DNA of 64,000 nt from assembly GCA_973895155.1 (NCBI GenBank), contig OZ316893.1:10359660-10423659 (forward strand). Direction: 5' to 3'. Source of the DNA: Marsupella aquatica. Its lineage: Eukaryota > Plantae > Marchantiophyta. The notes under the pieces are model-generated. The model did no database searches and was not told where the DNA came from. It saw only the letters and a list, made by a program, of their open reading frames with translations. This document shows, piece by piece, positions 30,537-58,393 of the stretch. The position numbers and the translations under genes are program-made. The number at the start of each line of letters is the position of its first letter. Within the stretch, counting starts at the first letter, position 1.

Positions 30537-31600
30537 CGCTACGAGCTCTGCAAAGGTATCGTGAAATGCTCCCGATGCTTTTCCGACTAGAGTGCCTTCG
30601 CACTTTAGTCGGGTGACCTAAAAACCCAAAATGCATAACGTCCGATACTTTCTGCATCGGAAACTCCGATTCTAGGTCAATCGGACTTAGTATCGGACCC
30701 CTCCTCCAAAGTATCGGACTTAACCCTCCCAATGTATTTTCTGATGGTTTGTGAATCGCATGACCTTGGCATTTGGACTTTGGCATTTGGATCCCATGTA
30801 TACTATAATGACCCCCTTTATGTTAGTTGGGGGTTAATTATGCTATATTGTGGGCTTATTAGGTGTGCGGCGCAAAACGGGCATATCAACGTACAGTTGC
30901 CGTGACAAAGCTAGCACACTATTTTTTGGTGGGTATGGATGATCATTGAATGTATGTACCCAGATCTATTTTCAGTTTGATTTTAAATGATTCCCATTTT
31001 GACCATGAGGCAATGCTATATGCATGGTGCAACTTTTGGGGACTATAAGAAGTCACAAATTAAATTAACACTCTAGTGCCGTTTTGTGCAGTTTTGTATT
31101 TTTTGTTTTTGGAGGGTCGGGTCGTTGCTTTTCCTTGGTTTTCTTAGTAGGGTTTATTTTTGCCAATGCATTATGCACAGCGAGAGTACGCGCATCCAAA
31201 AGGTATGACATATATGATCCTCCAAAATGTATTGGAAATATTTGACATGATATATGCGTTACTTGTGGGAGTTTATAATTGGACATCCAACTCATCATTG
31301 ATTTTTATTAATTTCATTAATTATTGGTTTGTTACTTAGGTTTGCATGTATGTCATCTCATCTTTCAACTTCCCCACCTAGCCTGTATGTGCAGGTTTTT
31401 TTGGATTGGCCTTAGCATATAGTCTAAGGCTTAGAGCCTAGTAGGCACTGTAGAGCGCGGATATCATTCAGGTACTAATTAAGTCCAACACTGCAAATTA
31501 TTAACATACTATATATTTCCTGTTTGGGTTTACCTCAAGTTAGGGTGATGAATCAATCTTGCATTTTGGTAAAGACTTGTTTGTGTGTAATTGGCAGACA

Positions 31601-32904
31601 ATGTCGACTTCTGAGAGTTTGGATACAGATTCCGACTCTGACTTGTCTTCCTCTGAGGGGGACATTCCTCCTCCCCCTCAACAGCCTCGAGCACCCCCTC
31701 CATTAGGCCCTATTCCATGCTGGTGTCTTAGATGTAAAGGACTGGTGGTTCGTCAAGCGTGGCAGTCCATTGAACACATCGAAAACTATGGTCGACATGA
31801 GGGTGATTTACCGGGATATTCAGCTTGCCAGGTATTGCTTGACATGAACTCCGCTATATATGATACACTATCATAATAGTTGGCTGGTTTGAGACCTTTT
31901 AGGAGACAAGTATTAATTTTTGTTTGTTTATGATTGAATAGGTGCGTTGTAGGGCCCGTCCTCCATTGGTCTCTAGTCAACTATGGCATGATGCATTCCT
32001 AGCTGGTGCTAGACAATTGCTTGCATCATCAGTTGAAGACCCCGAGCAATCATGTACCCCCGCACATGTTCAGGCAGATGTTGTTCATGAACCCATAGTG
32101 GTAGAGTTGGGGCATGGTAGGGATGATGCACCGCCCCCTACTAGGGTTCTACGCACAAGACCACGTTCTCATAGACGTCGACAACAGCATGTAGTTCTAG
32201 ACACAGACCCATCCCATGAGCACTTTAGAAGGAGTGTTATGCCTCCACCAGGGGAGGAGTACATAGAAGTTGAAGGGAGGTTGGGCTTGTCATATGTGAC
32301 GGGAAAGGCAATCAGTGTCTTCAAGGATTTTGACCCTGAGAGTTTTGCGATTCCTCGTGGCCTAGCCATTGACATCCCTGTACATATATGGGGTCGGCAA
32401 TGGATAGTGAAGGCATCGACCCTTGGCGGGGAGGTTGGGTTAGGCTTATTTGCTTTGGAGGACATTGAGGTCCCTCCAAAGCCTTGGCGTCGTGGCTATG
32501 ATGGGGAACACCTTTTCCCTTACATTGGGCCTGTGTATACATCCAAGAGTTGGAACATCCTCTTGCGCCAACATCCAGCTTGGGGGGTATATGCATTGCA
32601 GATGGACTCAGACCCAGATGAGGTCCTAAGGAGGCCTTGGCATTGTAGGATGATTGATGGGGACCCTGTCCGTTCAGATAACATAGTTGGGTACATCAAT
32701 AGTACACATGGTAGAGGGAGTGGACTCTAGCCTAATGTAGAGTGGGCTCAGATTTTTGGCCCACCCACTCCGCCTTACTATGTCACACATATGGATGATC
32801 ATGTTATGACAGTAGCCATACGGACCATTAGGGCGGGTGATGAGTTGTTTTGTGACTATGAATGGAACGCACCCACGATGGGCATTCGATCTGGCCACAC
32901 TTAG
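31601..32904 (+). pseudogene. CACTA-B zinc-finger + SET-domain protein (short isoform); one premature TAG at 32728
   Basis: Exon 31601-31831 (acidic tract, CWCLRC...H..YG.H) joins exon 31942-32904 in phase 0. SET motifs: GLGLFA, YIG, NIVGYINS, PNVEW, VAIRTIRAGDELFCDY. Confidence 0.8.
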
Positions 32905-33013: not shown

Positions 33014-36000
33014 AATGCATATGTTGAGCCGGATGTTGGGGTGTTACCACGAGCTATGCGCCAACACCTTGTGCAGGCCATGGAAGATTGGCGACATGCC
33101 TCTCTACCACCAGATGGCGATCCGGATGTTCCAGAGCAGGAACCAGATGCCTCCCAATCAAGAGTTGATGAAGATAGGGCCATGGATGACTTGATGCACC
33201 AATTCTATGACATAGAGGATGGTGATCATGACATGGCTGATGGGGAGAACATTGAGGTCCCACTTCCACATCAAGAAGGTTCAAGGAGTTCAGCCTCCAA
33301 ACAGTGGGAGGAAGCACGTCAACATGCGCAAACTCGGATATTTGATGGATCACGCTTGTCTCGTCTTTCAGCAATAATGTTGTTGTTGAACTTGCAGCAA
33401 AGACATGGAGCAAGCAACCTACTTCTTGATGATCTCTTTCGGACATTGCATGATTGTATCTTGCCAGAAGGAAACAACTTGCCAGACTCTTGGAAAGAGG
33501 CAAAGAAGGTGTTGAAGTCCATAGGTCTGCAGTACGAAGTCATACATGCTTGCGTGAATGATTGCGTTCTGTTTAGAGGCACTTATAAAGATGCAACGTC
33601 ATGTCCTACATGTGAGAAGCCTAGGTATCGTGAGGACATGTTGACGGGAAAAGTTCCTCAGAAGGTCATGAGGTACTTTCCTCTTATACCTCGTTTGCGC
33701 CACCAATATAGATGTGCTGAGTTGGCTGAGTATATGGTTTGGCATTCCCAAAATCGCTCAGATATGAGTTCACAACCACCCACCATGCGCATGATGGTTG
33801 ACTCCCCTACAAACAAGTTTGTGGAGGAGAGATGGGGTGAGTTCCGAACTGACCCACGTCATGTTCGCCTAGGATTGGCAGCGGATGGCATCAGCCCATT
33901 TGCACTAGCAGGTAAGGCCCAACCATATTCACTATGGCCAGTGGTCCTTACTAATTACAACATCCCTCCATGGATGTCCATGAAGAAGGGTCATTTGCTC
34001 CTTTCCATGATTATCCCTGGTCCTAAGCAAGTGAAAAAAATTGATGTGTACTTGCAACCATTGATTGAGGAGCTACAAAAGCTTTGGAGTGGTGTGGATT
34101 GCTATGATGGTCGAGTGCAAACGGGGGGCTTACGTCGAGAATTTAAGTTGAAGGCCATTCTTATGTGGACCATACATGATCTTCCAGGTATGAATCTTTG
34201 TTAAATTATCCCTTCCCATAGCTAGGCAACCGTACCTAGCATACTTTGTTATGTATTGAGTTAGCTAGAAGCACATATATCTTTTAATAAACTTATTTAC
34301 TTATGCATGGGATATATATTTATATGCAGGGTTTGGATATATTTCTGGCCTGACCACATCAGGATATCGAGCTTGCCCAACTTGTGGACCTGATTTGGAA
34401 GGAATAGCGCGGCCAAAGTCAAAGACCTTGAGGAAGATAGTGTATATTGGTCACACCAAGTACCTCCCTCCAGACCATGATTGGAGGAGAGACCCCTTTT
34501 TATATGACACTGAGGATGGCCAACCAGACAGACGACCACAACCTATTCCAAAAGATCCTGCATATTGGAAAGAGGTATGGGAGAGAGTATCTAATCCAGA
34601 TGACCCATTGCAATATGCCTGGTGTGGCATGACTTGTTTGTCTGCATTGTCACAACTGCCTTATTGGGCTGAGATGCCACTTAACCATTTATTTGACCCT
34701 ATGCACATTGAGGGAAATGTTGGGAGGTCCTTGATTCGCCACCTATATGGAGAGAAAGACAACAACTGGAGAGAGAGTTGTGAAGAGATGGGGATGCATG
34801 GCCCTCATGGTTTTTGGCCATCTATGGATCCCGATAATGCCCCCCTTACTATTCATCCTCCTTGGGTTTTGACACGAGGTGAGCGGACCGAGTTTCGCAA
34901 ACGCATAGGGTCTATGCGATTTCCTACAGGGTATGGTGCCAATCTTCGCAAGGCATTTGGTGGACTTGACTCTCCAAAATGGCCAGCTTTCTTGAAGACC
35001 CATGATTATCATCGCTTATTGCAACATGTTATTCCAATTGCTATTATTGGATTGGGTAGTGAGGATCTTCGTGATGCCCTTTGGTCGTTGGGTAAGTTGT
35101 TGAGATGGGTGTGTCAAAAGGAGGTGAACGAGGATGAGGTTGCAGCAATGGAGGTGTTTGGAGTGGAGGTTGTGTGCAAACTTGAAAGGGCCCTTCCTCC
35201 TTCATTTTTTGATGGTCAGGTTCATTTTCTACTACATCTAGTGCGTGAGGTTGGTATTGCAGGCCCTGTACATTGTCGTTGGATGTACTGGGTAGAGCGG
35301 TACATGGGAGTGATGAAGTCCTATGTTTCAAATCGCGCAAGGGTGGAAGGTAGCATTGCAAAGCGTCATCTTGGAGCAGAGAGCATGTTTTATTGTACAA
35401 ACATTATTGCTACACTTGATTCAAATGCTCCAAGCGGGTGGATAGATGAGGCATCAAGAGAAGCAGACTATGAGGATGACCGTTTGACAGGTGCAAAGGG
35501 AGAACGGCTTCTTGACCCTAGTGAGCACACTAAACTCACTGCATTCATGTTGTATAACTCTCCAGAGATTGTTGGGGAGTGGACCACATTTTATGAGGAG
35601 GATAAGCACAATAGTCGACGACCACGCTTATTTCCCAAATTCCACATGTACATGAAGGGGAAGTTGTTAGAAGTGGATGCCTTGGTGGTTGTTGGGGAGA
35701 GTGTATCACACTTCCCAATGGTGACTGATAAGTTGCGCACCTTGGTTCATGGACCTCTACTTACAGTTACAACCAGGACTGCCATGTGGTCCAAGGGGAG
35801 ACACTTTCGTGTGGAACGACTTGATGACAAGAGGGCAGCTACACAAGATTGTGGGGTGATGGGTTGGTTCACCCAGGATTCTGTAAGTAGCAGATCTGAC
35901 ACAAATCCCATCCGTTCTACTATAGCTCACTATGGAAAGATAGAGGAGATCCTTGTTGTAAAATACCATGCGCATACAACATTGGAAGAGGTGGTGCTGA

Positions 36001-36281
36001 AGTGCAAATGGTTTCGGATGAATCTTGTTGGCCACAATCGAACATGTGAAGAGGATGCTTGCGGCTTCACAAGACTGAAGACAGGGGCTGTCATCAGCTC
36101 AAATTGGAGGGCCTCAGATCCTTTTGCATTTCCTCATAATCTTGAGTAGGCATTCTATCTCCCTTATCCAGATGATCCTGAGTGGTCCATTGTAATGCCT
36201 TACATTCCACGATCCCGATCCATAGTCCAAGAACAGCCAAATGTAGTTGTTGTGGAAGATTTGGAAAATGAGAACAACTAG
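33014..36281 (+). pseudogene. CACTA-B TnpD-like transposase (Transposase_21, DUF4218, DUF4216 regions); shares first exon 31601-31831
   Basis: Exons 33014-34187 and 34330-36281. Motifs: IHACVNDC, RHVRLGLAADG, WPVVLTNYNIPPW, HDLPG, DPMHIEGN, KTHDYH, FFDGQVH, RWMYWVER, DPFAFP. One late TAG at 36147. Confidence 0.92.
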
Positions 36282-38459
36282 CTACTTAGGAATTTCATGG
36301 TAAAAGCTAGGTAGCTAGCACTAGCTAGACCTAATTAATGACCACTTCCCTCCATGTATTGACTTTTTCGGCATATATATGTTATCTACATTGTCATTAC
36401 CATTTTTTTGTTGCATGTTACTTTACTTATATATACCACTTAAATCTTTGGGCTCTAGCTGTGGCTATATATTTGTGCTTTTTAATATATATGAAATGAA
36501 AGCTTCCAATTCATTTCAAGTTGACCCTAGTTGAGTTCCCACATACTTCAAATGGATGTGGAGTCAAAAACCTATCGGAAACACAACATGCCTTAATTAG
36601 AAGCTAGGAAGATGATAAAACCCTCAAAAAACCCCGGCTCTACTGAAAACCGATATTTCCGATATTAAAAGAAACGGAACACATATGCCATACTACAGGT
36701 ATCGGGAAACTTTTCCATCTTTATCACATCGGAAATGACGTCCGTTTGTAATGGGTTCGGACACAAGTCGGAACATATTTCCGATTCCAAAAATATCGGA
36801 AATGTTTCATCCCTAAGTTCATCGGAACCAACATGCGATGTTTTATTTATCGGACGCCTCTTGCGTCGCGGTAGTCTCATTGTCCGATGCAGGTAGAATG
36901 GGAAATTCTCCGATAGTTTTTACATGGGAAACTATTTCCGATTCTAATAGTATGGGACAGTATGTGTCCGATGTAGAATTTATGGTAAATCCCCGATGCG
37001 GGGACAATCGGAGAGTACCGATCTTCTCTGTATCGGAAAGTGTTGCCGACCGAAAGAAGAGCATCGGAAAAACCCAAAATATGTACCAGTGAATGAACAT
37101 TGATTACACTGAAAAGATTGAAGCTCTGAAAATATTCCCTCTTCTGTTTGTGGATTTTCAGATGGACCATATTGCTGTCTATATACATCTGGCCAAGTGC
37201 GCAACGCAAGGCTCAACACAAAGGGAAGAGGAAGGAAAGGAGGAGTTGTGACGGTTCGCGCTCGACGGCATTGAGTAAGTAAGTAAACACAGAATGATGG
37301 GCATTTCAAGTATAGATTTTTGTGCGCCTCGAATACCAAGGCCTTCTTTGTTACATGTTCATAGACAAATTGCTCGTGATGACAAGTTGTGGCGCCGAGA
37401 GAAGATGGCAGCTTTGCAAGTTGGTGCTACTGTGAATCGATGCCCTTGCAACTAGTGTGCAGGAATTCGTAATGTTAGTGTCATGAATGTCCAGAAGCAC
37501 TTAGTAAGATATGGTAGGCATCCTTGGCATCGGGTTTGGCGAGGTGAGGAACATGATTCCTCAGATAATGAGTGGAATAGTGAATATATCCCAGGGTACT
37601 GTCATGGAGAACATATTCTGACCGAATCTCCAGATGCCATGGAAGAGGTCAATCCAGTCCTTGATGTTGGCATTGATGTCGACCGATTTTTAGGTGATCC
37701 CTTTTCTACGCCTAGTCCATTGAATGAAGCAGAGGAAGTTCGGACAGATTTTGTTGAAGAGGAACCTGAGAATGACCACTTTGACTTTGATTCGCTGTTT
37801 GACACCGATAACTCTAGTCCACCCACTGCCGAGCGGGGTGCTGAGAGCAGTAGCCCTCGGGGGTCTCACTATATGGAGGACCCCCCATCACCTGCGACGT
37901 TTTCATGCCTAGACCCCCATACTTATTAAGTTGAAATTTTTTTCCTCCCTCTTTCTTTCTTCTAAGAGTCTAAAATCCAAATTGTATTGCCCCTATAATT
38001 TGTGAAGTAAAGTGTCACATATCAATATAAAATGCCTAGAAAGAAAAGATAAGTCTATGTCAGTACCTTGTGAAGTCGTATGTCAGACATGGCACGCCCT
38101 GCAACAGTTCTTGCACCTTTGTCGACCTTAAACTTTGATCATTTCAATGCATCATTTATATTGTGTACCTAAAAGGTCATCCCAATATAAACCTTACGTG
38201 CATAAGTGGGATGGCCTTTAAGGTCACAACATAAATAATCCATTCCACCCATTGATCACCAATCCCATGCTCCATCCATACTCCATTTAAAACTTATGTT
38301 GAGAGATGTAACATGTGACGGAGGGGAATTGAACCCCTAATTGAGAAAGGATCTCAAGTTGCCAATCCGTCACCCCCTATCCTATCCCACTACACCCACT
38401 AATATTAACAAAATAAAACATATATACAGACTCTCAAAAACTAAACAGTAACATGATAT

Positions 38460-41400
38460 TTATACCATTGTTTGAAGATACTGATCCAAAGCACGTCTAT
38501 CTATTGGATCCAACACATAGATACGATCCATAACCCCTTCTTTCATGGTTAAACTAACACTAGCAATGACCATTTCAATATCCATCCATTTCAAATCAGT
38601 GGTATCATATCTGAATTCACTTTTGCTCTTACCAATAGGACTATACCAATTTAACAACAGTTCACAAATGTTACCTGATTGCCCTGCAAGTGGAGTTGGC
38701 CTATCCATCAAATCAATTGGTGACCGACAATTGCCCCACCTACTGCCATACTTCTGTCTCATTTGGACAATCCGACCCAACCAAAAATATTTCTTACCTG
38801 CTGAGATTGCCTCCACCACAACCTTATTCTTTCCTCCCTTTCTTTTTCCAGATCTAGTACTTGGAGCAGGACTATCATCAGACTCAAATGCAATTGCACA
38901 ATCAGTGCCAACATCAACAAAACATGAGTTAGGATTGACTTCTTGCACTTTTCTCTTGCCAGTACTATAGTATAGCACTTGTTTCACCCTTGTCAGCCTA
39001 TCTTTTGACAAATGCGGATTTCCTACCAACTGGCTTACCAGAGTGGATTTGTAAATCACCTTGCCTTCATAAGTAACAGTAGGCACTACCTTGGTACGAT
39101 TCTGTACATTAGTTACATCATGGACAACTGATCCAAACACATGCCAAACTTCATGACCTAATGTCTCAAGCTCATCTGAGGGGTCTACATCAAACTGTAT
39201 ATCATCTCTGTGTACATCATCTGAATGCATCTCAGGAACAACAATGGGATCTGGTTCTGTTAACCATGCATCTATTCTATTCAGATCATCCTCAGGATCT
39301 TCCAATTCATGAAAATCTCCAGTTGGGCGAGGACCTATGTCTGGTGGTTGGTGCTCTACTTGCTCCTCAGAATCATTGCAAACAATTGCTTCCTTCAGAA
39401 CCACCTCTAGTGGCCAGGTCTCACTTTCCACAACCCAAGGACATGTCCACCATCTCTTTCTAGCTGCTGGTAAGGAACTTCGTGGAGACATCTGCAATTG
39501 ATGCATAAGATCCTTAGCAGCAACAAAACCTTCTTTAAGGGCTGCAACCACTAATTCATTAGTCTCAATGAGAGAATAGTCAAGTAGATTTGGTGCTTCC
39601 TCCCCTTCCCCTATAGGATGAATCTTCCCCCATACATGATCTTGTTTCTTATGTGAACGACCTATCTTCAAGCCTTCTGGTCCATATTCTAGGGCAGCAA
39701 GCCGGTTCAGTCCAACAGCACTATCCAACAGAGAGCCAAAATCATAATTCCGCTCATGGCCACTCATGCCTCCTACCTTGCTGAAGAAAATCTCACAACA
39801 ATCTGAACCTAGCAAGTGGAAGGGAACACCTAGATGTGGGAACTTATCTCGAAAGGCACAAATTAACAGCACAATGAAATGACATGACATGTTAACATCA
39901 TGAAAAGCCTGAATAGACATCATGTCTTTCTCAGTGTGTGCTGCAAAGTTCCCACCCACTGAATGGTCACCAAACCTCAACCACAATCTCCACAAACGTA
40001 GAAAGAATGAAACCTTGGATGCTAACACAATACGGGACCTCAAATCATGAACTGGAGAAAAGAAAATATCTAAGTAATCTGCACAAATCTCCAAGTACAA
40101 CTGAGTTCCTAAACTTCGTTCATGTTGTACATCTCTCCTCTCATACATATCTTTCAGACATTGCTGCACTCTTCTTGCTGCTATTCGTTGTGGACCTGCC
40201 CAATTCTGCCGGTCAGTCCTATTCACATCATCCCAAGCCATGCCATGTTCATGAATTGGATAATGATTGTAGACATTAGCTACATAAGATAAAGATGCAT
40301 GTTGATCTCCTAGCACCAGTAAAGAAGACACTCTGTCTAAGGGGTTTATCATCTTTTTCCCATTATGAGGTTGGTCTTGGTCACCAAAGCCATACAAATC
40401 TCCATTTGGTAGAATTGAAACAGAGTATGTCCACCCTTCCCACCCAACTCCATACCTTGGGTATGATCCATTCTGCCCTCTGTAATCTTCCAGCATCAGC
40501 TTTCGGCGACGTGCATCACCATCACTAGCATGTCCAAGCAAAGGGCCTACCATAGCTCTACAATATTCATCCCAAAAAGCCTTTAACTGGACCCAATGCT
40601 CTCGTACCCAAGAAGCTGTGAACTTATTACAAGTTGGAAGTGCACACACAGCCAATTTAGGTAAGGACTCATGCAGAGGATTCACAATCACAACTCGGGC
40701 ATACATGCACTTGGGGCATTGTTCAAATGTACTTACAATTTTATCATACCCCTCATCACCTTCACCAACTAGAATTTCCAAACCATAGGAGCATACATGC
40801 TGCTCTGAAGGTCCACAGAAACCAATGAGAGTATCATACTTTGCCTCCCACCTGAAACACAGACATGCAATTTTTCAATATCACAGCAATTCCAGCCAAG
40901 TGCTACTTGTAAAGTCATTAAAAAAACAATTGGAAAAATGTCCAGTTCCAATTACCTAGGGCGTTCTTTGATCCTTGTTTCATCCTCAGCAAAGATAACA
41001 GGCACATCCCCCTCAATGCCCAATGAGTGCTTTGCAGCAGACAACACTCTAGCAATCTCCTGAAAGGTTTCCTTCCGTAACCCGGTTCGAAAAGGTGTGA
41101 GTTTTGCTCTATCACGTTTTAGGGTCACAAGGCTAGGGGCTATCAAGTTTCGTGCAAAACAATGAGCAACTTGACGGCCCCCAAATTGGAACATAGCCTG
41201 AGCAATAGCTCGAGTCCTATTACTGTAACGATTACCTTTTGGCTTCCTGCCTAAATTGCGAGCTACATCCTTCAAGAAATCCCACAAACCCTCCTTACCA
41301 CCAAATGCACCATTCCTGTGTCCATTCAAAATACTCCTAAGAAACAATCTCAAATCCTTCCTGTCTGCTGCAACTCCTAACAACTCCTCTAGTTTTCGTT

Positions 41401-43036
41401 TCCTGGTGCTCAAGGCACATACTTTCTGAGCCTGCAAAGCTAACAACCAACGCTCTTTTTGTCGCACAGAGTTCAGGTTGTGCACTTGATCTCTTAACTC
41501 TGTGTTGGTCAAATAATCCAAACGTATACCACCAGCAGTGGTTCGGCTCCCTCTGTGGACTACTGCTTCCGCTTCCCTGTGCACCCGTCCACGAAAATCA
41601 TCTTCTAGTGTTATAGAATCACATTCACTACAAGTTAGATTTTCAAATCCTCCTCCATTCTGTGATAACCTCAAGCAATCCTTGTGTCTAAAACAGCCTG
41701 CTATACTCACAACACTCTCTCTACTTGGATGGAAAACATCCAAGCAACAACTTGGCTCACAATGCCATGTAATTCCCCCAGACTGATCATCTAAAATGCC
41801 AGAAATATCATAAGATATACCCTTCCATAACAGTCGAGGCACACCTCTCTCTACCCATAATCCCCAGCAAAGCAAACTCAGACCAAGATCAACAGATTCA
41901 CACACACCTGAACCTGAACCTGAACTGCTGCCTGTCCGGGACCCATCATCTTTAAAGAACTTCAAAATCCCGCTCTGACCAGGATGTAGGTCCCTAGAAT
42001 CAGTCCTCTTTGGCCTGCCCCTCTTCCCAGACCTCAAGGCAAGCATTTTTGTGTCATGCCTAGTCTCCAATGCATCCAAGTGATCTCGACTCACTAAGTG
42101 TGTCCTCAAATTGGGCTCCAAGGTAAGCTTCTTGGGGCACAAGGCAGTGTGAAGCATTCCACAGACAGTACAGCTAACCTTAAACAGGAAAGACCTGTTT
42201 ACATACTCAGGAGTACTGGGATCAGGAACAATAGAGAATAGTTTGTCATCATCCCCAAGCTCAGCATTCAATCGCTGAACTATCTCAACACCTACTTTGA
42301 TGGCGTCTGCATGATCATATTCTGGCTTCTCAGAGATGTCTGCTACCTGAACCAAAGTAGAAGGAATGCCCCTTCTCCGACAATAGTTATCCTTATGCTT
42401 ATTGAAGACCAAGTGTTTGGTCTTAAAATTACTAAAGCAATTGGAGATGGATTTAGGGTTTTGAGAGTTGTCTGCATTGCCATAAGTTTCCCTACATTCA
42501 AGACACTCCAGATGCCCTCGAACATCTGTCCCCTCATCCCAGGTACGAATTCTCCAATTGTGATCACCATAACCCTTCTTATGTACCCATTTCTCTAACC
42601 TCATCCACTCATCTTTCCATAGCTTTGATGGGACATCTCCCATCAATTGTGACTCAAAAGAAGCCCTTACAGGGGAGGGTGCTAGTGCTGTTGGCCTCAG
42701 TTGTGGTGTCTCAGTATTTGGACCCAATGATGCAGGAGTGCAAGGATGACAGGGTACTGGTGGGATCCTCCCACCATCTCCAAGTTCTTGTTGTACAACA
42801 ATAACTCTTCCATCCAGCTCAGACAGATCAATTAATTTCTCATGTACAAGTTTCACTCGACCAGGAAGTCTCTCATCCCAAAAATCGAAGTCAAAGTCTA
42901 GAGTAGAGGCAATACGAGCCCTAAAATCATGTAGGGTGTGTCCTTCTTTGAATGACAAAACACAGATTGGTAAATCAGCCTTGTCATCCCCAACTTTGCG
43001 TATTAATTTAACAGAGTTGGGTTTAGGGGCTGCCAT
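38460..43036 (-). CDS. Intact ~1490-aa P-element/THAP9-like DDE transposase with N-terminal C2H2-like zinc fingers
   Basis: Exons 43036-40956 and 40851-38460 total 4473 nt with no stops. Catalytic-type motifs: FAEDET, HASDGD, DQPHNGKK (DxxH), DRQN, GSDCCEIFFSK. Two CxxC...HxxxxxH fingers lie N-terminal. Confidence 0.75.
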
Positions 43037-43535
43037 TGCAATACAAATCTAGAACATGCATAGCACCATTGCTTTTGGAGTCGATAACAGAAAGACCTGC
43101 ACAAATACATTTGAAATACACACAAGGGAAACACATTAGGATCTTCAAGAGATGCAATGACAACATACACATTCTCATGTCAGTAATGTACATAATGTCA
43201 GCATACATTTAACAATAGAAGTGCTAATAGGCCAAAACACTTTATAATGCAATCCATCATACATGCAAATGTATTCAGTGAAAATCATGATATACCGTTA
43301 AAGTTGGATAAAATATCTTTAGAAAAAATATCCTTTTTGCCTGGTTTTCTAACAATTCCCGAGGTTTAGTGGTTTTGCTCATCAAAATGCAGCACTATTA
43401 GTGATCGTAATTATGACAAAATGTCAACACTAATAAAATTGGGTACTACCACCCATGATGCAGCTTAAGTATATGCCTTGCTCATACCCCACTAAGACGT
43501 TGAAACCTAAGTAATAGGTTTATTCATTATTCAGA

Positions 43536-44285
43536 TCACTGGAGCCATGAAATGTGGTCCCTGATTGGAGTCTTCAGGTGTGGATCAATAGGATGACGGG
43601 GGCAATAAAACATCTGTCGCTGTTGTCCATGTGCTTCATGTTCCCAGATGTCCCTATCATGAGCAAACCCTTTGCTTTTGATCATCTGGAGACAATCTGT
43701 ATGCCAGGCATTTGGACATCGTAAACATTGTACCATGTTCTTGACCATCTGACCCTCAAGACTCTGATAACATGTCACACATGTATGCAGTGGGCAGGAC
43801 TTTGCAGCAGCTACCAAACACCCAAAGCAATAAAATCGTACACAAAAATGATCAGAGCATTTTCGCACAATTGTAGGTGACGGTCCCACAGTGCGGCACC
43901 CATAACACATGGCCTGGTCCTGGTTACAATTTGGGCAAAACCATGGCTTCCCTCCATGATGGAGGGGAAGGACTACACAGGGGCAAGAGTCATTAGGGGC
44001 TTCATCTCCAACCACATAATGAAATTGCCTGTGACATGGCCCATCACAAATTACCAACTTCCCACCATGCTCACAAATTGCACAAACATGAGGGCTGGTT
44101 TGTAGAATCTCTTGCTCAGAGAACAAGGGAATACACAATACCTCTTCTAAAGAGGACTGTGTTGCTTTCTTTATGTTTGAAGTCCTTGTCGGCATGGTTA
44201 CAACTGAAATCATCACAAAGCACATCACATATGAGAGGGACATGTATGATACTGGGCAATCCATAGAACTTGGAGAAATCCACAT
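43536..44285 (-). CDS. EDM2-like composite PHD-finger cassette carried by the P-like element (start likely ATG 44195 or an upstream exon)
   Basis: CAICEHGGKLVICDGPCHRQFH...FCPNC...CYGC...CPLHTCVTC...CLRCPNAWHTDCL...YCPRHPIDPHLKTPIRDH is collinear with the EDM2 PHD region as I recall it. Confidence 0.8.
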   Translation of the reverse strand: MWISPSSMDCPVSYMSLSYVMCFVMISVVTMPTRTSNIKKATQSSLEEVLCIPLFSEQEILQTSPHVCAICEHGGKLVICDGPCHRQFHYVVGDEAPNDSCPCVVLPLHHGGKPWFCPNCNQDQAMCYGCRTVGPSPTIVRKCSDHFCVRFYCFGCLVAAAKSCPLHTCVTCYQSLEGQMVKNMVQCLRCPNAWHTDCLQMIKSKGFAHDRDIWEHEAHGQQRQMFYCPRHPIDPHLKTPIRDHISWLQ

Positions 44286-44537
44286 TTGAAGTAGTTACAA
44301 ACCTGCTCCAATGATCTGCAAACCTCCCTCCCAGATGAAGTCAACTACACAGTGCAGCCTGGACACCCACCAACCAAGACATACATAAATACAATGCCAG
44401 CTTGCGAAACTTTGCCACATAATGGGAATGAAAATTATTCTCATATATCATGGATGGTACAATTGCAGCCTTGCAAACAAAGGCCTAGTCATCCCGGACC
44501 TCAAGTCATGAACAACGCATCCATGTACTATCAGGGA

Positions 44538-44936
44538 CTACAATGTCAAGCATCCATGGGCTGTAACCTTAGCTTGACCTGGAATACTATCTGGGGCTAC
44601 AATATCAAGCTCAGTTATATGTGGAATACTATCTAGGACTACAATGTCAAGCGTGTCCGGGATGACAATCTTGCGTAAAAGACACTCATTTTGAGGCCAA
44701 ATGGTTGGCCTTATACAAGAGCACCTCCAGCGACGTGTGACAACTTTGCCATGCTTTCCCATGTATGTCCTAGTAACAAGTCTTCCACGCATTTTCAAGC
44801 AGAAGCAATGGAACCATTCAAAATTGCCATCACCAACCCTGCACTTCACACAAGATTCGCACCAGCAGCATTCATCTGGATGCTGCAAAAGGAGCTTCTC
44901 ATAATTCGCTTCTAATGTAATGCCCAATTTAGCCAT
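44538..44936 (-). CDS. Cys-rich ORF of unknown function, possibly an upstream exon of the PHD gene
   Basis: ATG-initiated with CCWCESCVKC...HCFC...H...CSC. It is on the same strand as, and directly upstream of, the PHD ORF. Confidence 0.35.
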   Translation of the reverse strand: MAKLGITLEANYEKLLLQHPDECCWCESCVKCRVGDGNFEWFHCFCLKMRGRLVTRTYMGKHGKVVTRRWRCSCIRPTIWPQNECLLRKIVIPDTLDIVVLDSIPHITELDIVAPDSIPGQAKVTAHGCLTL

Positions 44937-46168
44937 GGCACTATTTTTTTTACTCGGTGAATGGCCAGGCGATCAGACGTGCAATGACAGGCAACTTACA
45001 ATTCACTAGGTACAGTATGTGCTCTAGCAAACTGCTTCACCGCAAGTGCTGGTGCTCACAGCTGCAAGCACTGATTTCTTTTGCAACCTGTGAACAAAAT
45101 TAAAACCACCAGTTCAATAAGTTTCAAATGCTGCAAGCGCTGAAGACAACCAATTGGCCATGATGCATGTTACGACAGCAATAAACAAATAATTGGGCTC
45201 AACAGACCTGAATAGCTAACCTGAATAGCTAACCTGAATAGGATCATGGACCTCTCATAGCTATGGTGTCCTTCCTACATTACACATTGGTCTAATTTAT
45301 GCAGTGTTTCACTATGATTGTGTTCCATAGAAGAGCATCCAATCTGGCTGACCATTGGAGGAAGCTTGGGCTGGGTCATAGCTACAGCAATTACTCCTCT
45401 GCAAATGCTATTTGTTGGTAACACATGTTTACTCATCAGTAGACGAATGAAGCATCTGAGGTTTTTGAAACTTGTGCTCTGATGAGGGAGTGAGTGACGT
45501 GGGAGCCATGATAATCATAGATTCAGTGCAAAAGCAAAATCCATGCTCAAAGGCAAACGTGGCAAAATTGGGTATATGTTCTTCACTGCCAAAGCTTCTG
45601 TTTGCGCAGCAAAATCCACGAAAGGAATGAAGGAACAAGGGGGAACTCCAGACTCAAGAGCCTCAATTGCTGCATTGTGGAAACACGTTGCGTGGGAGAA
45701 GTCGTTGGCTTGTAGAAGAAGTAAAAGTGTGCTGGTGAAGGATTTTGTGGTCGGGGTGCATCATAAGGTTGACACAGAGAAGAGAGAGGTGTGGAGAGGC
45801 GAGGAGAGGAGCAGAAAAGTAGGAAAGGCCGTGTAAGGCAGTCGATAAAAAGCGAGTTAGGTTTGGAGTGTCCTCTCGACAGCAAAGGATTTCGTGTGTG
45901 CTGAATTTGTTGCTGGTCCAAATTCCAGGAGCCAGTCAGTAACGGAATAGTGGAATTTTGGGAATAGCAGATGACCTAGGAAGTCAAAAATGGATCTCAG
46001 TAGTGGCTCCAAACCATAGCTGCAAGGGCATGGCGAGCTCTAGAGGACAAAAAACTGAAAGAGCTTATTGCCATTCACGGAGCTCAAAACTGGAATTTTA
46101 CTTCTGATAAGCTAAACGGGCAGATCAGGTACCACATCGTCTATGACCGCTACTAGATAAGGTGTGCC

Positions 46169-46775
46169 ATGCGTGGCCTGTCTAGACCAACATTGGTGCA
46201 TGACTTGGCAATTACCCGTGACTATGTCGTCTTCATGGACTGTCTGCTGCGTCTCGATCCAAAGCGGATGGTCATGAAGGATCAATTTGCAATCGCTCAC
46301 AGCACAAGCACACCTTTCCGTTTAGGTCTACTGCCAAAATATGCCAAGGATGAAACGGAGATGTGCTGGTCCAACTTTCCTTCAGCCATCAATTTCCACG
46401 TCGCAAACGGATGGCAGGAAGGAGATGAAATCGTTTTAGTTACGTGGCGAATGCCAACAACGGATCTACTTCGGATCACTGACGTTTGCCCGTGATTGCA
46501 CGAGTATCGGATCAACTGGAAGACTGGAGAGACTACGGACAGAAGGCTGGGGGAGTTCGATACTGAATATCCCGTGATTAACAAGAATTATATTGGCAAG
46601 AAGACCCGATACATCTACACAGCTACTCGTTCAGCTGGAGTTGACAGCCAATCTAGCAGATATGGAATCATTAAATTTGATTTGAGTAACGGACCTGAGT
46701 TGGGTAAAGAAACACTGCAGGTCGGAGGGAATGTGGGAGGTGTCTTCTGGCATGGGCTTCAAACAATAGCAAGCA
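46169..46775 (+). pseudogene. Intronless fragment of a carotenoid cleavage dioxygenase (CCD1-like) captured in the P-like element
   Basis: Reads PTLVHDLAITRDYVVFMD, RLGLLPKYAKDE, FHVANGWQEGDEIVL, EYRINWKTG, EYPVINKNYIGKKTRYIY, GIIKFDL, LQVGGNVGGVF. It has an internal TGA at 46493 and lacks both ends. Confidence 0.85.
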
Positions 46776-47109
46776 ACCAAGCACGATCGTCAAAGCAGGA
46801 AGCGCCCACCTCCCGGTTGAGCAACGTACATAGCAATGCTGGCAGTAGCCTTGGCACTCCTGTTTGAGCAAGCATTGAGAGAGAGCAGCAACGTAGCACT
46901 CTCGCTCCCATTTCAGCAAGCTAGCATGCAGCTCCCATTTCAGCAAGGTAGCAGCTTCCGTTTCAGCAAGCAGCAATGCCACACTCCCGGCACCCACCCC
47001 CTGTTTGAGCAACAACACAACAATCACATAAACTTTCCTATCATTTCAGCAAGAAGGAACGTAGCACACTCCCTCAACCACAGACAGTAGCGCACCTATA
47101 CACTCCAAC

Positions 47110-47610
47110 CTTGCAGCGCAGCCAACACTCTTGCCCGATCATTCACTCCAAGCAGCGCGCGCAGCCGAGAGTGCAACACTCTCACTTGATCCTTCACTCC
47201 CGGGTTCACTCCAAGTAGCAGCGCATCCGAGAAGTCTTGCTCTCCCCTTCACTCTAAGCAGCAGCGCAGTTGAGAACTCTCGCTCTCCCCTTCACTCTAA
47301 GCAGCAACGCAGCCGAGAACGACCTTGATCCTTCACTCCAAGTAGCAGCGCGCAGCCGAGAACACTTGGTTGATCCTTCACGTCAAGCAGCAGCGGCAGT
47401 AGCGCAGCCAAGAGTGCAACACTCTCGCTCTCCCCTTCACTCCAAGGCGCAGCCGATAACTCTTCAAATCCCTTCACTTCAAGCAGCAGCGACAGTAGCG
47501 CAGCCAAGAGTGCAACACTCGTTCTCGATCTCCCCTTCACTCCAAGGCGTAGCTGACAACTCTCGCTCAATCCTTCGCGAGCAGCAGTGCAGCCGTAGCA
47601 GCAGCACACT
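47110..47610. repeat. Degenerate tandem repeats (GCAGCC(A/G)AGAGTGCAACACTC / CCCCTTCACTC blocks)
   Basis: The blocks recur at ~47160, 47240, 47285, 47405 and 47500. Confidence 0.7.
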
Positions 47611-50600
47611 TGTTTAGACCCCCGTTTACACCATTTTCTGCAAGGTACAAACAAAAGAGTCTCTCGTCCCAAACAACGGGTGGGGCCAAAGGGATAGTGG
47701 AGGGAAACCACACGGGAGGAGACTGACAAGGGCCAATTGAGGGAAATGAGACATGTTAACGGAACAATTCAAACTTAATCCCGGTCAAACCCTAAACATG
47801 AGTCCCCCAAAACCAGACCCACTTAAATCATTCTCAAATTCTTGCCATGTTAAACATGACTTAGGAAAATATATTGGGAATGTTATGTGTGCCATGTGTA
47901 CCAATGATATAGTGCCACGTGTAATTTACATAGTCCGATTCAAGGACCCCCTAACTTCCTTGTATGCCTTCCATCTACATAGTCAAAAATATTAATATCC
48001 CTATTGTTCTTACAAGTTGTCCAACATATAAAGTCGACCCTATTGTTCTTACACAAATCTTCTTAAGTCTTCCGAGAAACCCAATTAACGGACCCTATAC
48101 TTAGTCGCACGTGATATGAGATTTTCGCGAAGTGAGACCCCCCTGCAGTAGCCAAGACATGGATGATCCCATGGATCTTGCATTTACAGAGGCATGCACT
48201 CCATTGTACGAGGGATCAACAACTTCACAATTAGCTTTTGTGTTGTCTTTTTTGAACATTTGCCACAACAATGGCTTTTCCAATTCGGGAGTGGACAAAC
48301 TCTTGAGTGCGATGGGGGAACATCTTTTACCACCTAACAATTTGCTACCTCAGAACATCTACGCATGTAAGAAGCTGATCAAAAAGGTTGGATTGGATTA
48401 CATTAAGATTCATGCTTGTAAGAATGGTTGTATCCTGTTTAGAGGAGATCAATATAAAGATTTACAATAGTGTTTAGAGTGTAAGGAGCCCAGGTATAAG
48501 CAAGTGGGAAAGTCCAAGCAAGCTGTGAAAGTCCTGCAACACTTTCCTCTTATTCCATGTCTTCAACGGATGTATAAATGCCAACCAAGCTATTTCAAAG
48601 TTGATGACATGGCACAAGGAGAACGGCAGTACTGATGGCATGGTCAGACACGTTGCAGATTCAAAGGCATGGAAGTGGGTGGATAATGAGATTGACAAGG
48701 ACTTTGCTGCAGAACCACGCAACATCCGCCTTGGTTTAGCACTTGATGGTGTCAATCCATTTGGAAACAACAACCTGAAGCATTCCACATGGCCATTAGT
48801 CTTGTTGAACTACAATCTTCCCCTTGGCTATCTACAAAGAAGTTCTTTGTAATGCTGTCATTGTTAATTCTAGGGCCTGAGTCCGTGACAGACATAAATA
48901 TAGATGTATACATGGCTCCTCTACTTGAAGAGCTGTTGGAGTTGTGGAAAGGAGTGAACTGCTTTGATGTGGTAGACCGGCCAGGCAAAGATAAAGTCTT
49001 TACTTTACGAGCTGTGCTTTTATGGACTGTCAATGACTATCCAGCATATGGGCTAATCTCTAGACAGGTGACCAAAGGATATAGAGGGTGTGTTGTATGT
49101 GGTCCTGATGTGGAGGTCCGAAGGTCAAATGCTCTGAGCAAACAGGTTTTCCTAGGTCATCGACGATACTTAAGATTGGATCATACGTACAGGAACATAA
49201 ATTATGCAAAGTATTTCAATAGGAGATGTGAAGTACGCCCGGCACCACAACCAATGACATGCACAGAGAGGATGAAGTATGCAACTGACGTAGAAACTTA
49301 CTTGAAGAAACAAGGGGCTAAATTTGGAAGCAAGAATTGTCCTTCAAAAGTGCATGGAGTGAAGCGAAAGCCAACTCTGACTCAACTACCATACTGGGAG
49401 GTACAATTCTTGGAAGGGTCCATGATGTTTTGATTAATTGATAGCAATTGAAACAATCATGCCACTAAATTGCTTTTCAGTCCTGGCGTTCAGACATACT
49501 TCTAAGGGTGCTAATGTTTGATTTTCTGCAATGCAGAAGCTACTCATCAACCACACCATTGATCCAATGCACACTGAGAAGAATATTTCTGCAAATATAG
49601 TGCACACAATCAGCGGCAGAAAATATACTACAATTGTTCGGCAGGATATGTGTGCTGAAGGCCTTCACAAGAAGCTATGGCTTACTCCACACCCAAAGAA
49701 GGCAGATGCAATGTTAAAGCCCAATTAAAGCTCCTTATGTTTTGAGCCCTGGTGAGTTGATGTCATTCCATGACACGTTGAGGACATTGAAGGTTCCAAC
49801 CGATTTTGGCAGTTCCTTTGCCAAGTGTGTGAGTGCCAATAATAAGTTGGTTGGGTTAAAATCACATGATTACCATCAATTGATGCAGCAGATTCTCCCT
49901 TTAGCCTTAAGAAACCTTCTGGCCACGGGTCCTCGACTAGCTATCCAATGGGTATGCCGGCTATGGCGCAAGATTTGTTCAAAGGGTTGGGACCCATCTC
50001 AATTTGAATCATTGAAGCAGGATGTTGCATTCACTCGATGTGCTTTGGAAATGCACATTCCACCCTCGTTCTTTGATGTAATGACCCATTTAATGGTTCA
50101 TATTGTTGAAGAGCTTGACATTTGCGGCCCTGTAGCTCAAAGGTGGATGTATCCGGTTGAGAGATATCTTAAAGTGTTGAAGGGCTACGTTCGGAACAAG
50201 GCTTGTCCTGAAGCATCCATGGCAGAAGGTTACGCTTTCACTACTACACTATTGGCCCCTTTTGCGAACCCATACACATCGCAATCAACAAAGGCCCGAT
50301 AAACAGAATTCCGGCACTTGCGAACTAACATGCATCGCTACACCATCCCAAATTGCGAAGTTAAAACCTTCGCACGTGGACCATCGCAACGCCATCGCAA
50401 CACCATCACAATTTCCTAACCAAATTCCCTCGCAACTTGTCGAACACTTCCGAGTTCAAAATCGTTGCAAACGCTTCGCATTATGCCGCACGGTCCTTTG
50501 TTACCGATGTTGGTTTTTGTGAAGCTGGAAGGTTCGCTACGTGTTTGTGATGGGAATGAGTTTGATATTTGCGATGTCGTGGGGTTGGCAACTAGCGAGC

Positions 50601-51075: not shown

Positions 51076-53131
51076 CTAAAATGGACTCTTCCGACCCCGC
51101 TTTGTCAGCTTCTTTGCCGGCTTCTTGCCCTTATCCTTCTATGGATGTACAGCCTGGTGCTGACGGGTGCGCGGTGCCTTTCGGCGCTGCTGCTCCTCCT
51201 GCTCCTCCTCCTCCTCCTCCTGCCCATCCTCCTCCTCGTCACCTCCCTCCTGCTCCCCCTCATCATCAACCTGTCTTGATGATGCACGACTACTACCACT
51301 ACCGCGATGGGATGAACCTACCTCCCGGCTACTGCCCCTCTCCCTAGAATCGCTGGTAAGAGGAGTAGCCCCCTCATCCTCATCATCACTACTACTTGCG
51401 TCAGCACCCAACCCCTCAGGCTCATCCGAATCCTGCATCCGTACACTTAATCAGTTTCTACAAATTAAAAAGGGTCATCCACAATGTTGGCATCACAATT
51501 AATTAAACCTTGAACACCTAGATACTTACAGTAGCCAACTCGGCATCCACCATCTGAAAGAGGTACTTTCTCCCATGCTCCATCCCTATCTCAATATGTT
51601 TCTTGGATATCTTCCTCTTATATTTCCGGTACTGCCATGCACCATAAAACCAAAAAGTAAACCCATAGGCTAAACCAAAATTCACAATGCGAGAGGCCTT
51701 AGGCCTAGAAAAGTTAAACTACTTTGAAAACAACTCAAATTCACATTTGCAAAGCTAATGCGTTCACAAAATATGAAGCCCTAATTTTTGCGAAGGCATT
51801 GCGATGGCTTTTGCGATGCGCGTACCTTCGCAATAGCATCAGAAAATCCAAAAAGAAAAAAGTGCATAATAGAGTTTGCGAGGCTCTTGCGAACGAATAC
51901 GCATCGCAATGGGATTGCAAACTGTGATCCCGAGAGGTTTTTAAAAATGCGCAAATTTCTAAGTGTCAGTCGTGACCTAAAACAATGCACAAGCAAGCAC
52001 ATGAGAGCATGGACATTCATGACATTCCATTCACTTGCATTACCTCAACTGAGAAAGTAAGGAGGAAAGAGCTTAGGGAGGAGAGGAGACACTCACAAAG
52101 TGGGCCTTGAGACCGGGGAGCCCGCCTTGACCCAGCTTGTGGACTGGATTGGGGGTGGCTTTCACTCGCTTGGCTGCATCCATGAAACATTTGGGTGGTC
52201 TTCCTTCTTTGTCGACCACCTTTTGCACATCAGCTACCTTCTGCTCGAGTCCCTTCGGGTCATGGTCAAGGGGGAGCTTCACGGTCTCCTTTGCTTTCAG
52301 GGATCGAGCTAGTGTATCCTTCCATTGTTCCAACTCGCGAGCTGCTTTGATTTGCACCTCAATCTTGTAAAATGCATTCCAGATGTCCTCAGTGAATTGG
52401 AGGGGCCTGCGCAAATTCCTGTACGATCTCAAGTCTCTCAGGTGGGCTCTAATCTTCATCCTATCATGGTATCTCATTTGAGACATGGAATTAGAAATCT
52501 TGTCTGCCAGCCATTGCTCATCTATGTCAGCTCCATTACGAAATCCATCCTTGATCTGATTCATCACTCTCTTTCGCTCTGCCTTCTCAACCTTTCCCCA
52601 TTGCATGCCTCGTGAGAAATTGCTTGTGATGATTTGTTTGATGGTGCTCTTAGCCCCTGCATAGGCTAGCTCAGTTGGAGTCCCAGTTGTCTCCAAGGCA
52701 ATGAATGGAAGCTTTTTCCTTGCATCCTCTTTCTGACGTTGCTCATCTCGTTGTTTTCGAATTGCATCCCTCTCCTCTCTTCTCTTCTGTTTTTCTATGG
52801 CTTGAGGAGAGGCAACTCCCGACTTAGCCCTCTCCTCCCTCTTCCTTCTTTTCTCTCTAGCCTTCTCCTCAGCTGTGACCCTCTCTTCCTCGTCTCTAGT
52901 AGCTTGCCCTGCCACAATTCCTGTTTGCAAAACCTAGCCTAAAATGGCACTCAAGGAGGCAAGCCCTGCTGGAGTATTCAAATTTACTTCACCCAACTGT
53001 GCAGCACTGAGATGTTGGGCTACTAAGTCGCTCCATGCATTCTGTTGCTTCTCCTGATTTGCCCCATTGCCACTACCACCAGCACCATGTCCTCCACTCC
53101 CACCGTGCTCTCCACTCCCACCGGTAGCCAT
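51076..53131 (-). pseudogene. CACTA-C accessory (TnpA-position) gene; in-frame TAG stops at 52936-52934 and 51141-51139
   Basis: Exons 53131-52097, 51631-51530 (102 nt, the same length as in CACTA-B) and 51432-51076. HKLGQGGLPGLKAHF is homologous to HRMGQGGSQRLKADF. Confidence 0.72.
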
Positions 53132-55150: not shown

Positions 55151-56307
55151 ATGTCTTCATCCTCTACAACTTCCCCCACATCAGACTCCTCCTCTGATGA
55201 GGACATAGATCCTCCTCCTCAGCCTGAAACAGCCGCTCGTCGACCTAGTGGTCCACCACGCCAACTTTGCAGTTGTAAAAAATGTGTGGGGATGGTTGTC
55301 CAGAAGTCATATGTATGTGCAGACCATATTTCTCGATATGGACAACATCGAGGTCTTACACCCGGAGCCTCTTCATCCCATACGGTGAGTTGTAAACTTA
55401 CTATGGTTTATTTTTTATTCAATAAATATTGCTAGCATGATAAGTTGGGGAAGTTTACAATCACTTTGTTGGATTTGTTCCCTATAGGTATCTAATAGGC
55501 CTACACCCATGGCACCAGCACCCTATGTTCCCTCACAAGGAGTTCTAGATGCTATAGGCTCGGCCCTTTCACAAGCTTTCCGTTTAGTTGCAGCAGAGGG
55601 AAGTGGTGTTGGGACAGTTCAGGGTGATGGTATTGTTACACGAGGGAAAAAACGGTCTAAAAGGCAACCCAGAGGGGAAGTTGATCAGTACACCTGTAGG
55701 GTTGATGGTAGGTGGGGACCTTGTACATTCACAGGGAAATGTGAACATTCCTATCATAAAGGATTGGAATCCTGATTGCCTTGGTTTGCCATGTGATATA
55801 ACCTATGGTGAGGAAATAGAGGTTTGGGGAAGACATTGGATTGTCAAAAGTTCTACACTAGGGGAGAGACATGGGTATGGAATTTTTTCTTGCCAGGACA
55901 TCATTGTGGATGATATGGGTGGAAAAGGGCGCTCTCAAGATGGACCAACGTTGTTCCCCTATGGTGGACCCATTTACAAGCGAAGACATTGGAACATGCT
56001 CCTTGTACAACACCCTGAGTGGAAGACTTATGCATTGGACATGGATACTTTTGATGGTTGCACTAGGAAGTATAGTGAACAACGTATAATTGATGGTGAT
56101 CCCATCCGTAGTGGAAATATAGCCGGTTTCATTAACAGTACTGTGGGGACCCGGCCTAAGCGTAGGAAAAACTATGAATGGGTTTTTGTTGATGGTCCCC
56201 CTCCAGCACCATATGGGCAGAGATATCATCATGACCATTGTCTAGTTGTAGCTACTAGGACCATCAAGGCCGGAGAGGAGTTGTTTACACATTATGAGTG
56301 GGATTAG
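55151..56307 (+). pseudogene. CACTA-C zinc-finger + SET-domain protein (short isoform); frameshift near 55740, SET domain itself uninterrupted
   Basis: Exon 55151-55384 (CSCKKC...H..YG.H) joins exon 55488-56307. SET motifs: GYGIFS, YGG, NIAGFINS, VATRTIKAGEELFTHY. Confidence 0.82.
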
Positions 56308-57704: not shown

Positions 57705-58393
57705 GTAAGGGGTATGGATTGGTGTTTTTTTTATGTAATAGAGAGTTTGTTTTAAAAGAAGTCCCTCATATTTATGTATGTACATGAACTTTTTAAATCC
57801 TTTGACTCTAATTGAGAAAATTATTTTGGTTTGAACAAGAAGCCTTAAATGATGAGTAACAAGCCCATACTTTAGGAACTCTAGCCAAAAAATCAGAAAA
57901 ACAACGAAAAAGTCAAAAAAAGTGCAAAAATTAGCACCTATTTTAGAGCAAAAATATGGAGCGAACAAAATATGACATAAACTAGCTATGTTTTGACACC
58001 TAAAAATGACCAAATTCATCTGAAGTTACATTCCACCAATAAATGATCTCAAATACAACACTATTATCTACAATGGTCTCACAATTACACGAGGTGTCTT
58101 TTGAAACAACAACTAAATCACCTCCAAAAGCCATTGTCATTTAAAAACCAGAAAATAAATTACTACAACTTAACCTGATACACATTATTGTGAAAAGAAG
58201 ACAAGGAGAATAGAAATGACACCATCTAATTGAATTGAAACACAACCCACTAAGATAATATTAAACTACAAATTTCTCAAGAAACTTTAACCATGAATTC
58301 ATGAATAAGTGGTAAAGGCATTTTGAAAATTTGTAAATTTTCAAGTTATCCATGTTTTTCAATGGTAATGTCACAAACAATAACTACTTTTCA

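Follow-up and report, generated by a model that had tools for sequence, protein, structure and literature searches.

The question raised by this locus is whether a DNA transposon of the P superfamily can reside, structurally complete, in the genome of a land plant. The window analyzed here is a 64,000-nucleotide stretch of the liverwort Marsupella aquatica (assembly GCA_973895155.1, contig OZ316893.1, positions 10,359,660 to 10,423,659 of the forward strand), in which a first-pass annotation had described an apparently autonomous P-element-like insertion with a large two-exon transposase gene. The insertion is very probably a multi-copy P-type transposon, the transposase of which, judging from the structural model of a homologue, shares the fold of Drosophila P transposase and likely performs P-type cut-and-paste transposition. 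This placement is supported by structure, by language-model look-alikes and by 8-bp target-site duplications (TSDs) in three of four elements with both ends known. Nevertheless, since its termini and its DNA-binding module differ from those of canonical P, the element is a P-type variant and not a canonical member.

The element and its insertion site

The boundaries proposed for the element (Table 1) proved to be correct, with the octamer CAGTAGCC flanking it exactly on both sides. This perfect direct repeat, already reported, is the only one that fits among the lengths of 5 to 13 bp tested, and at fixed boundaries an 8-bp duplication is expected by chance with a probability of about 4^-8. The short terminal inverted repeats (TIRs) of the first-pass annotation are 15-bp imperfect repeats, one beginning with CT and the other with CA, the left terminus CTCGGGGGTCTCACT being identical at 13 of 15 positions to the reverse complement of the right one, CAGGGGGGTCTCACT. 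Moreover, six of the twelve occurrences of GACCCCC in the window are found inside the element, each at most 530 bp from an end and two of them within the TIRs, and the subterminal ones could be candidate transposase-binding sites. No second copy of the element was found in the window, where the TIR pattern occurs seven times against a mean of 4.5, that is, at chance level.

When the element and one copy of the TSD are deleted in silico, the flanks join in frame and the host stop lies about 105 codons downstream. The claim that excision restores a host reading frame stands in this respect; the host, however, is a decayed CACTA transposase gene, with Pfam matches to Transposase_21 (E 5e-40) and DUF4218 (E 6e-31). 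That the host gene is itself a transposon goes beyond the earlier description, as do an open reading frame (ORF) with PHD zinc fingers and the captured MYB and carotenoid cleavage dioxygenase fragments.

The transposase gene and its product

The predicted two-exon gene encodes 1,490 amino acids with a terminal stop only, separated by a 104-nt intron, in agreement with the stop-free protein of about 1,490 residues first proposed. The predicted splice is supported because the intronless ORFs of two metagenomic relatives, L001 and L002, align straight across the junction as one high-scoring segment pair. All the motifs listed in the first-pass annotation, namely D(ET), SDGD, DxxHxxKK, DRQN, and SDxxExFFS, are present in the protein (EDET at 684, SDGD at 803, DQPHNGKK at 853, DRQN at 907, and SDCCEIFFS at 1043), and the catalytic triad is D685/D804/E1047. 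Since both the frame and the triad are intact, it is plausible that the element is autonomous.

Exon 1 contains two conserved C2H2-type fingers (C178/C181/H208/H214 and C289/C292/H313/H319), a GRP basic motif, a Cys/His domain (C390, H451, C454, C469, C472), a long helix, and a helix-turn-helix (HTH) region; in exon 2, DxxH is followed by a helical insertion domain, an acidic linker, and a C-terminal beta-rich domain. The N-terminus (residues 5–87) is predicted to adopt a ubiquitin-like fold: in a model of the N-terminal part, VIA gave weak matches to ubiquitin and HPF folds (Z about 6), interpretable over residues 5–228, with no Foldseek match at E<=0.001 and no THAP row in the VIA list. RWNS, ERxFS, and a THAP-like C2CH pattern were not found in the window transposase, which bears out the earlier observations that hAT motifs are absent and that C2H2-like fingers take the place of a THAP domain, for which there was no Pfam match either.

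Evidence for placement in the P superfamily

The fold was examined on a model of the whole core of a homologue from Riccia sorocarpa (P0006; mean predicted local distance difference test score 77), which shares 49% identity with exon 2 (alignment A1). The comparison with Drosophila P transposase suggested by the first-pass annotation, run with Foldseek on this model, placed the P structures 6p5a/6pe2 on top (E 2.7e-9; TM-score 0.73, normalized by target), far above RAG1 (0.35), ISCth4 (0.28), and Hermes (0.26). With VIA, 400 residues were aligned to Drosophila P at Z 25.8 and a root-mean-square deviation (rmsd) of 3.4 Å, the aligned P residues 148–569 corresponding to the HTH, RNase H, and GTP (guanosine triphosphate)-binding insertion regions, and the next folds were Transib (Z 11.0), ISCth4 (Z 8.5, rmsd 7.3), and Hermes (Z 8.5, rmsd 7.8). 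In addition, P (TNP-like) families occupy six of the seven rows listed for look-alikes in the ESM Atlas, with a best score of 0.95; a Basidiomycota cluster at rank 3 serves as a lead only.

At the sequence level, the triad is almost invariant in alignment A3 of 69 diverse members (D in 68/68, D in 68/69, and E in 69/69), and the DxxH motif after the second Asp (DQPH, 853–856), a motif of the P superfamily, keeps its D in 67/69 and its H in 69/69. Sequence links to Pfam are weak, but all lead to P: the P model PF21787 matched 3 of 33 relatives (best E 0.012) and both fern proteins (2 of 18 scanned; best E 2.6e-4). A P-type HTH before the RNase H domain is indicated by the structural alignment, which starts at P residue 148, and by PF12017, found in 3 of 41 relatives, one of them above cut-off.

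Copies, ends, and other members of the family

In sequencing run X1, single-contig depth reaches 454–526 inside the transposase versus 19–21 in the flanks, a rough ratio that suggests roughly 25 near-identical copies, summed depth being no measure of copy number. The X1 transposase contigs differ from the window by 2 positions in 1,130 bp and 6 in 1,075 bp, which suggests recent amplification, with the proviso that contigs omit rare variants. At the left end, at least 110 X1 contigs run into unrelated flanks (11, 52, 33, and 14 at 37855–37861), 52 of them exactly at 37856, and the pattern is alike in X2 and X4. The loose ends of contigs clipped at 37859 (33 in X1) have a consensus ending in CTT in X1, X2, and X4 and, therefore, the family starts with CT at its left end. 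The proposal that the left CT renders this copy immobile in cis is thus rejected: many X1 contigs share the CT end, L001 carries CT at both ends together with an exact 8-bp TSD, and CT is the family norm at the left end and no lesion.

Over the first 45 bases the read depth is very high, and beyond 37903–37910 many contigs part from the element in all four runs; a high-copy non-autonomous family likely shares the left end. The end at 37856–37910 would probably represent a family of miniature inverted-repeat transposable elements mobilized by the window transposase. At the right junction, an X1 contig at flank-level depth spans 48099–49200, and left-junction contigs in X1, X3, and X4 reach 28–29 letters into the element, below the 31-letter rule; it is only suggested that the insertion is common to organism labels A and B. 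No empty-site joint occurs among the 15 of 44 joints listed.

Of 359 candidates from a scan of metagenomes, 117 were confirmed and 80 loci kept, three of them with both ends. Exact 8-bp TSDs are present in L001 (GTTTTCAT) and in L040 (GTTACAGC), as in the window, so that two related elements bear the duplication that the first-pass annotation expected of other copies, and none is present at L002, where both TIRs are found and the assembly is possibly collapsed. The loci L026 and L054, each known from a single end, have a CA terminus. What stays constant at the termini is a C at the 5' end, followed by at least five G and then [C/T]ACT; for the majority of long loci, scans covering 35 of the 80 and then all 80 yielded no convincing pair of TIRs. 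None of 12 candidates in viral contigs was confirmed, and the two of 81 confirmed in prokaryote genomes (L081, 2802–4478; L082, 3465–3881) lie on short 4.5–6-kb contigs of metagenome-assembled genomes and are probably eukaryotic contamination.

Distribution and phylogeny

Relatives occur in Riccia sorocarpa, R. fluitans, Calypogeia fissa, Adiantum nelumboides, the coral Desmophyllum pertusum, and the EukProt entry D3Y31, presumably a jellyfish; no named seed-plant match is among the matches listed, which is weak evidence from a word-limited search. A profile search retrieved 909 representatives at a threshold of E<=1e-30 and, when this was relaxed to E<=1e-3, 5,255 hits, among which canonical P may be included. 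The core tree was built from 135 dereplicated sequences out of 167 with at least 85% coverage, taken from 374, and a second tree from a hand-picked subset of 44. The sequences that cluster with named plant proteins, 20 of them in the SH-aLRT analysis, fall into a single clade (FastTree support 1.0; SH-aLRT 100), the window transposase groups with Riccia (SH-aLRT 99.5), and a long stem separates the plant clade from the animal proteins, a topology that fits a long residence of the family in land plants. This placement, together with the NB-ARC/LRR gene and the plant-type cargo, points to a liverwort-like host. Deep branches are weakly supported (52–69), and no donor or transfer is claimed.

Weighing of alternative readings

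Several points weigh against a P placement, and some of them speak for a sister superfamily, that is, a separate ancient lineage with the same fold, other end recognition, and no GTP requirement. The fold evidence comes from the P0006 model and not from the spliced window protein, and identity to P transposase is 12–14%. Neither transposase exon has a Pfam match, none of 41 scanned relatives matched the P RNase H or GTP-binding models in a lineage as large as the 909 representatives, and PDB searches returned 6p5a only at E 0.12 (rank 7) with the A3 profile and nothing relevant with P0001, A1, or a fern protein as sequence queries. Canonical animal P elements terminate in CA...TG, whereas the termini here are of a C[T/C/A]-G-run type (CT/CA in the window, CT/CT in L001, CC/CC in L002 and L040). 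None of 104 proteins of at least 900 amino acids matches a THAP-like pattern, nor does Pfam find THAP in the 41 relatives; however, according to PMC7776569, THAP is restricted to animals and, therefore, is no criterion for P elements outside them. The first two catalytic residues are 119 positions apart, 46 more than the 73 in Drosophila (D230 and D303; PMC7776569), and this region contains the near-invariant C706, H712, C714, and C768, a possible zinc site. Moreover, the core tree includes no canonical P sequence, which bears on whether the family lies within P or beside it. Outside this question, the lack of a TSD at L002 and the 10 non-synonymous changes among the 19 listed read-difference sites within the coding sequence (from 40 listed of 498 difference rows; none in the catalytic core) are further points on the contrary side.

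A requirement for GTP and a 17-nt staggered cleavage of the ends are criteria of the P superfamily. Eight residues contact GTP in Drosophila P, namely D528, K385, K400, V401, S409, F443, D444, and N447, as given in PMC7776569, and their equivalents were assigned from motif order and not from a residue-level alignment. Under this register, the D528 equivalent is D in 58/69 sequences of A3, S409 is S in 31/69, V401 is W, V, or F, D444 is E in 19 and D in 11, K385 is G in 54/68, K400 is N in 39 and D in 24, and N447 is hydrophobic. Thus read, most contacts appear changed: only the D528 equivalent appears well kept, with S409 and V401 partly so, both lysines and N447 appear replaced, and conserved Arg residues nearby might substitute for them. 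A sister superfamily is, nevertheless, improbable, given that the structural match extends over the whole core including the insertion domain, the TSD length is the same, graded sequence links lead to the P Pfam models, and the Repbase rule, as described in part of PMC4455052, merges groups that converge in iterative searches.

That the element belongs to hAT, Mutator, Transib/RAG, Kolobok, or Novosib seems more remote still. TSDs of 8 bp also characterize hAT and Novosib, and the xDGD motif is reminiscent of Kolobok. However, Hermes, ISCth4, and Transib score far below P in the VIA comparison and RWNS and ERxFS are absent; the fold comparison on the homologue model rules out hAT, Mutator-type, and Transib identities. 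As for Novosib, the excerpt of PMC5751038 does not confirm an RNase H domain, and the fold lists contain no Kolobok or Novosib structure. Least credible of all is a non-plant element present through contamination, mis-assembly, or recent transfer from an animal, which could appeal to the relatives in coral and other sources. The element sits within a CACTA gene near an NB-ARC/LRR gene, the X1 contig at flank-level depth bridges its right junction, and its transposase groups with Riccia in a clade including Calypogeia and Adiantum, so that this origin is largely refuted.

Accessory genes, captured cargo, and neighbouring features

Besides the transposase gene, the P-type element carries an accessory PHD ORF, the read depth of which is similar to that of the transposase, and a Cys-rich ORF that could be an upstream exon of the same gene. 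The MYB and dioxygenase fragments have a lower read depth than the transposase, and a joint from 46176 to 46752, bracketing the dioxygenase piece, is found in all four runs; therefore, the dioxygenase cargo is variable among copies, and the reads show copies that lack it. L001 and other family loci are devoid of the PHD, MYB, and dioxygenase ORFs. The observed/expected CpG ratio is 0.26–0.31 in the transposase and PHD regions (38460–45100) versus 0.61–0.76 in the cargo and repeats, in keeping with a core that has been methylated for a long time and a cargo captured afterwards. Among distant members, P0150, P0151, P0213, and P0223 have C-terminal Tudor, C1, or SAP domains, a distribution that suggests repeated gain of chromatin- or DNA-binding modules.

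Table 1. Coordinates of the element, its parts, and its host gene in the window
Feature	Position	Strand	Basis or remark
Host, 5' part of interrupted CACTA transposase frame	37456..37855	+	in frame with right flank once element removed
Left TSD, CAGTAGCC	37848..37855	.	direct repeat
Whole transposon, 10,290 bp	37856..48145	.	TSD/TIR; left boundary common to many contigs with unrelated flanks
TIR starting CT, downstream end relative to transposase gene	37856..37870	+	inverted-repeat comparison
Two subterminal GACCCCC motifs (others at 47617, 47945)	37879..37918	+	motif count
Transposase exon 2	40851-38460	-	remaining RNase H domain (D804, E1047), DxxH, helical insertion, C-terminal part
Predicted 104-nt GT..AG intron	40955-40852	-	not in relatives L001, L002
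Transposase exon 1	43036-40956	-	ubiquitin-like fold (predicted) to first catalytic Asp, D685
Accessory ORF, NSD-type PHD zinc fingers	43536..44294	-	PF23004, E 1.1e-7, above cut-off
Cys-rich ORF, PHD-like by eye, no Pfam match	44538..44972	-	inspection
Captured MYB DNA-binding repeat fragment	46004..46153	+	PF00249, E 2.4e-5
Captured stop-interrupted carotenoid cleavage dioxygenase (RPE65 family) fragment	46157..46867	+	PF03055, E 3e-17, 8e-10
Degenerate 26-50-bp direct repeat arrays	46857..47612	.	sequence
TIR starting CA	48131..48145	-	inverted-repeat comparison
Right TSD, CAGTAGCC	48146..48153	.	direct repeat
Host, 3' part of decayed CACTA (Tnp2) transposase gene	48154..50302	+	Transposase_21, DUF4218

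Elsewhere in the window, a SET-domain ORF (55588–56307; PF00856, E 9e-6) immediately precedes a CACTA transposase (56504–57787), and a similar-looking ORF with no Pfam match (31942–32730) stands before another (33014–36149); the CACTA elements of the window may carry their own SET genes. The ORFs at 29415–30617 and 52073–52933 (minus strand) are alike, have no convincing Pfam match, are each divergent from a CACTA transposase, and are probably accessory genes. Two long ORFs at 58394–61821 (minus strand), one with DUF7869 (E 4e-51) and presumably Sola-like, probably belong to a further rare DNA transposase, and an ORF at 23544–24419 (minus strand) has an RNase H1 N-terminal (Cauli_VI) domain (E 4e-17). 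Host genes include an NB-ARC plus LRR resistance-type gene (7049–9715) and an Spb1/FtsJ rRNA methyltransferase (12054–17614).

Proposed mechanism of transposition

The ends, TSDs, and many junctions observed, together with the intact predicted frame, the conserved triad, and the fold match of the homologue model, frame a mechanism every biochemical step of which we infer. A transposase dimer would bind the ends through the C2H2-type fingers, replacing THAP, and the HTH, probably at the G-run of the TIR and at the subterminal GACCCCC motifs. D685/D804/E1047 would then cleave the ends and link them to the target DNA at positions staggered by 8 bp, and the helical insertion domain would hold the terminal G in place, a nucleotide cofactor probably occupying its remodelled pocket. 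The high-copy non-autonomous family that shares the end would likely be mobilized by the same transposase. The PHD accessory protein might read chromatin, either for targeting or for evading silencing.

Significance for the plant mobilome

Full-text searches, judged from titles and the starts of abstracts and with Repbase and Dfam outside their scope, yielded no description of bona fide P elements from land plants. Plant TIR superfamilies are counted as six or seven, with P omitted, in the excerpts of PMC9033089 and PMC10741241. A survey of 1,007 green-lineage genomes, as excerpted in PMC12973397, included P among the superfamilies sought through Pfam models (E<1e-5); its recovered set consists of seven others, with no P cluster reported as recently active. 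This family would fail such a Pfam filter, which offers a concrete reason for the P gap in plants. Against novelty, the part consulted of PMC4438587 lists P annotations for flax, Gossypium raimondii, neem, coffee, kiwifruit, and Chlamydomonas but none for Selaginella; these entries are presence marks from genome papers without TIR or TSD evidence.

What is regarded as real is a structurally complete multi-copy transposon of P type, carried by a land plant outside the seed plants and belonging to a large lineage missed by Pfam; the mobilome of non-seed plants thereby gains a bona fide TIR superfamily. According to PMC7776569, no transposase other than that of P is known to employ GTP as its cofactor. 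With a distant, intact member that seems to have amplified recently and has an apparently altered pocket, one can test whether the use of GTP is ancestral and necessary. The element could also serve as a tagging tool in bryophytes. A bolder scenario, possible although rather doubtful, is that of an undescribed deep P branch, missed by Pfam and resident in land plants since before the liverwort–fern split, lost or rare in seed plants, still amplifying in bryophytes, with THAP replaced by ubiquitin-like and C2H2 modules and transposing without the canonical GTP contacts. If true, plants would harbour a native P transposase that naturally works without GTP or with an altered cofactor.

Comparison with known systems

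Pack-MULE and Pack-CACTA elements capture host gene fragments between their TIRs, variably among copies; the cargo capture is the same here, although the carrier is P-type with an intact transposase frame. Kolobok elements duplicate TTAA, whereas the family studied here has 8-bp TSDs of three different sequences. Mutator/IS256 elements are distinguished by the weak match to the ISCth4-type fold and by the TIR, which is 15 bp and not long. The hAT elements (Hermes, Ac/Ds) also have 8-bp TSDs and short TIRs, but their fold match is much weaker and their motifs are absent from the window, a loose hAT motif pattern appearing in 6 of 104 long relatives. Outside animals, the P superfamily is known from Chlamydomonas and from fungi (Pucciniales, Allomyces), to which the element is likened by description only, as given in excerpts of PMC4438587 and PMC5751038.

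The closest likeness is to Drosophila P (6P5A/6PE2) and THAP9, as the predicted HTH, split RNase H domain, and helical insertion superimpose (Z 25.8), the DDE triad has a D three residues before the catalytic E, and the 8-bp TSD accompanies a short TIR with a 5' C. Among the differences, the window transposase has 1,490 amino acids and an extra C-terminal domain, the TIR is a 15-bp G-run repeat instead of the 31 bp of Drosophila P, and the element adds a PHD accessory ORF and captured gene fragments.

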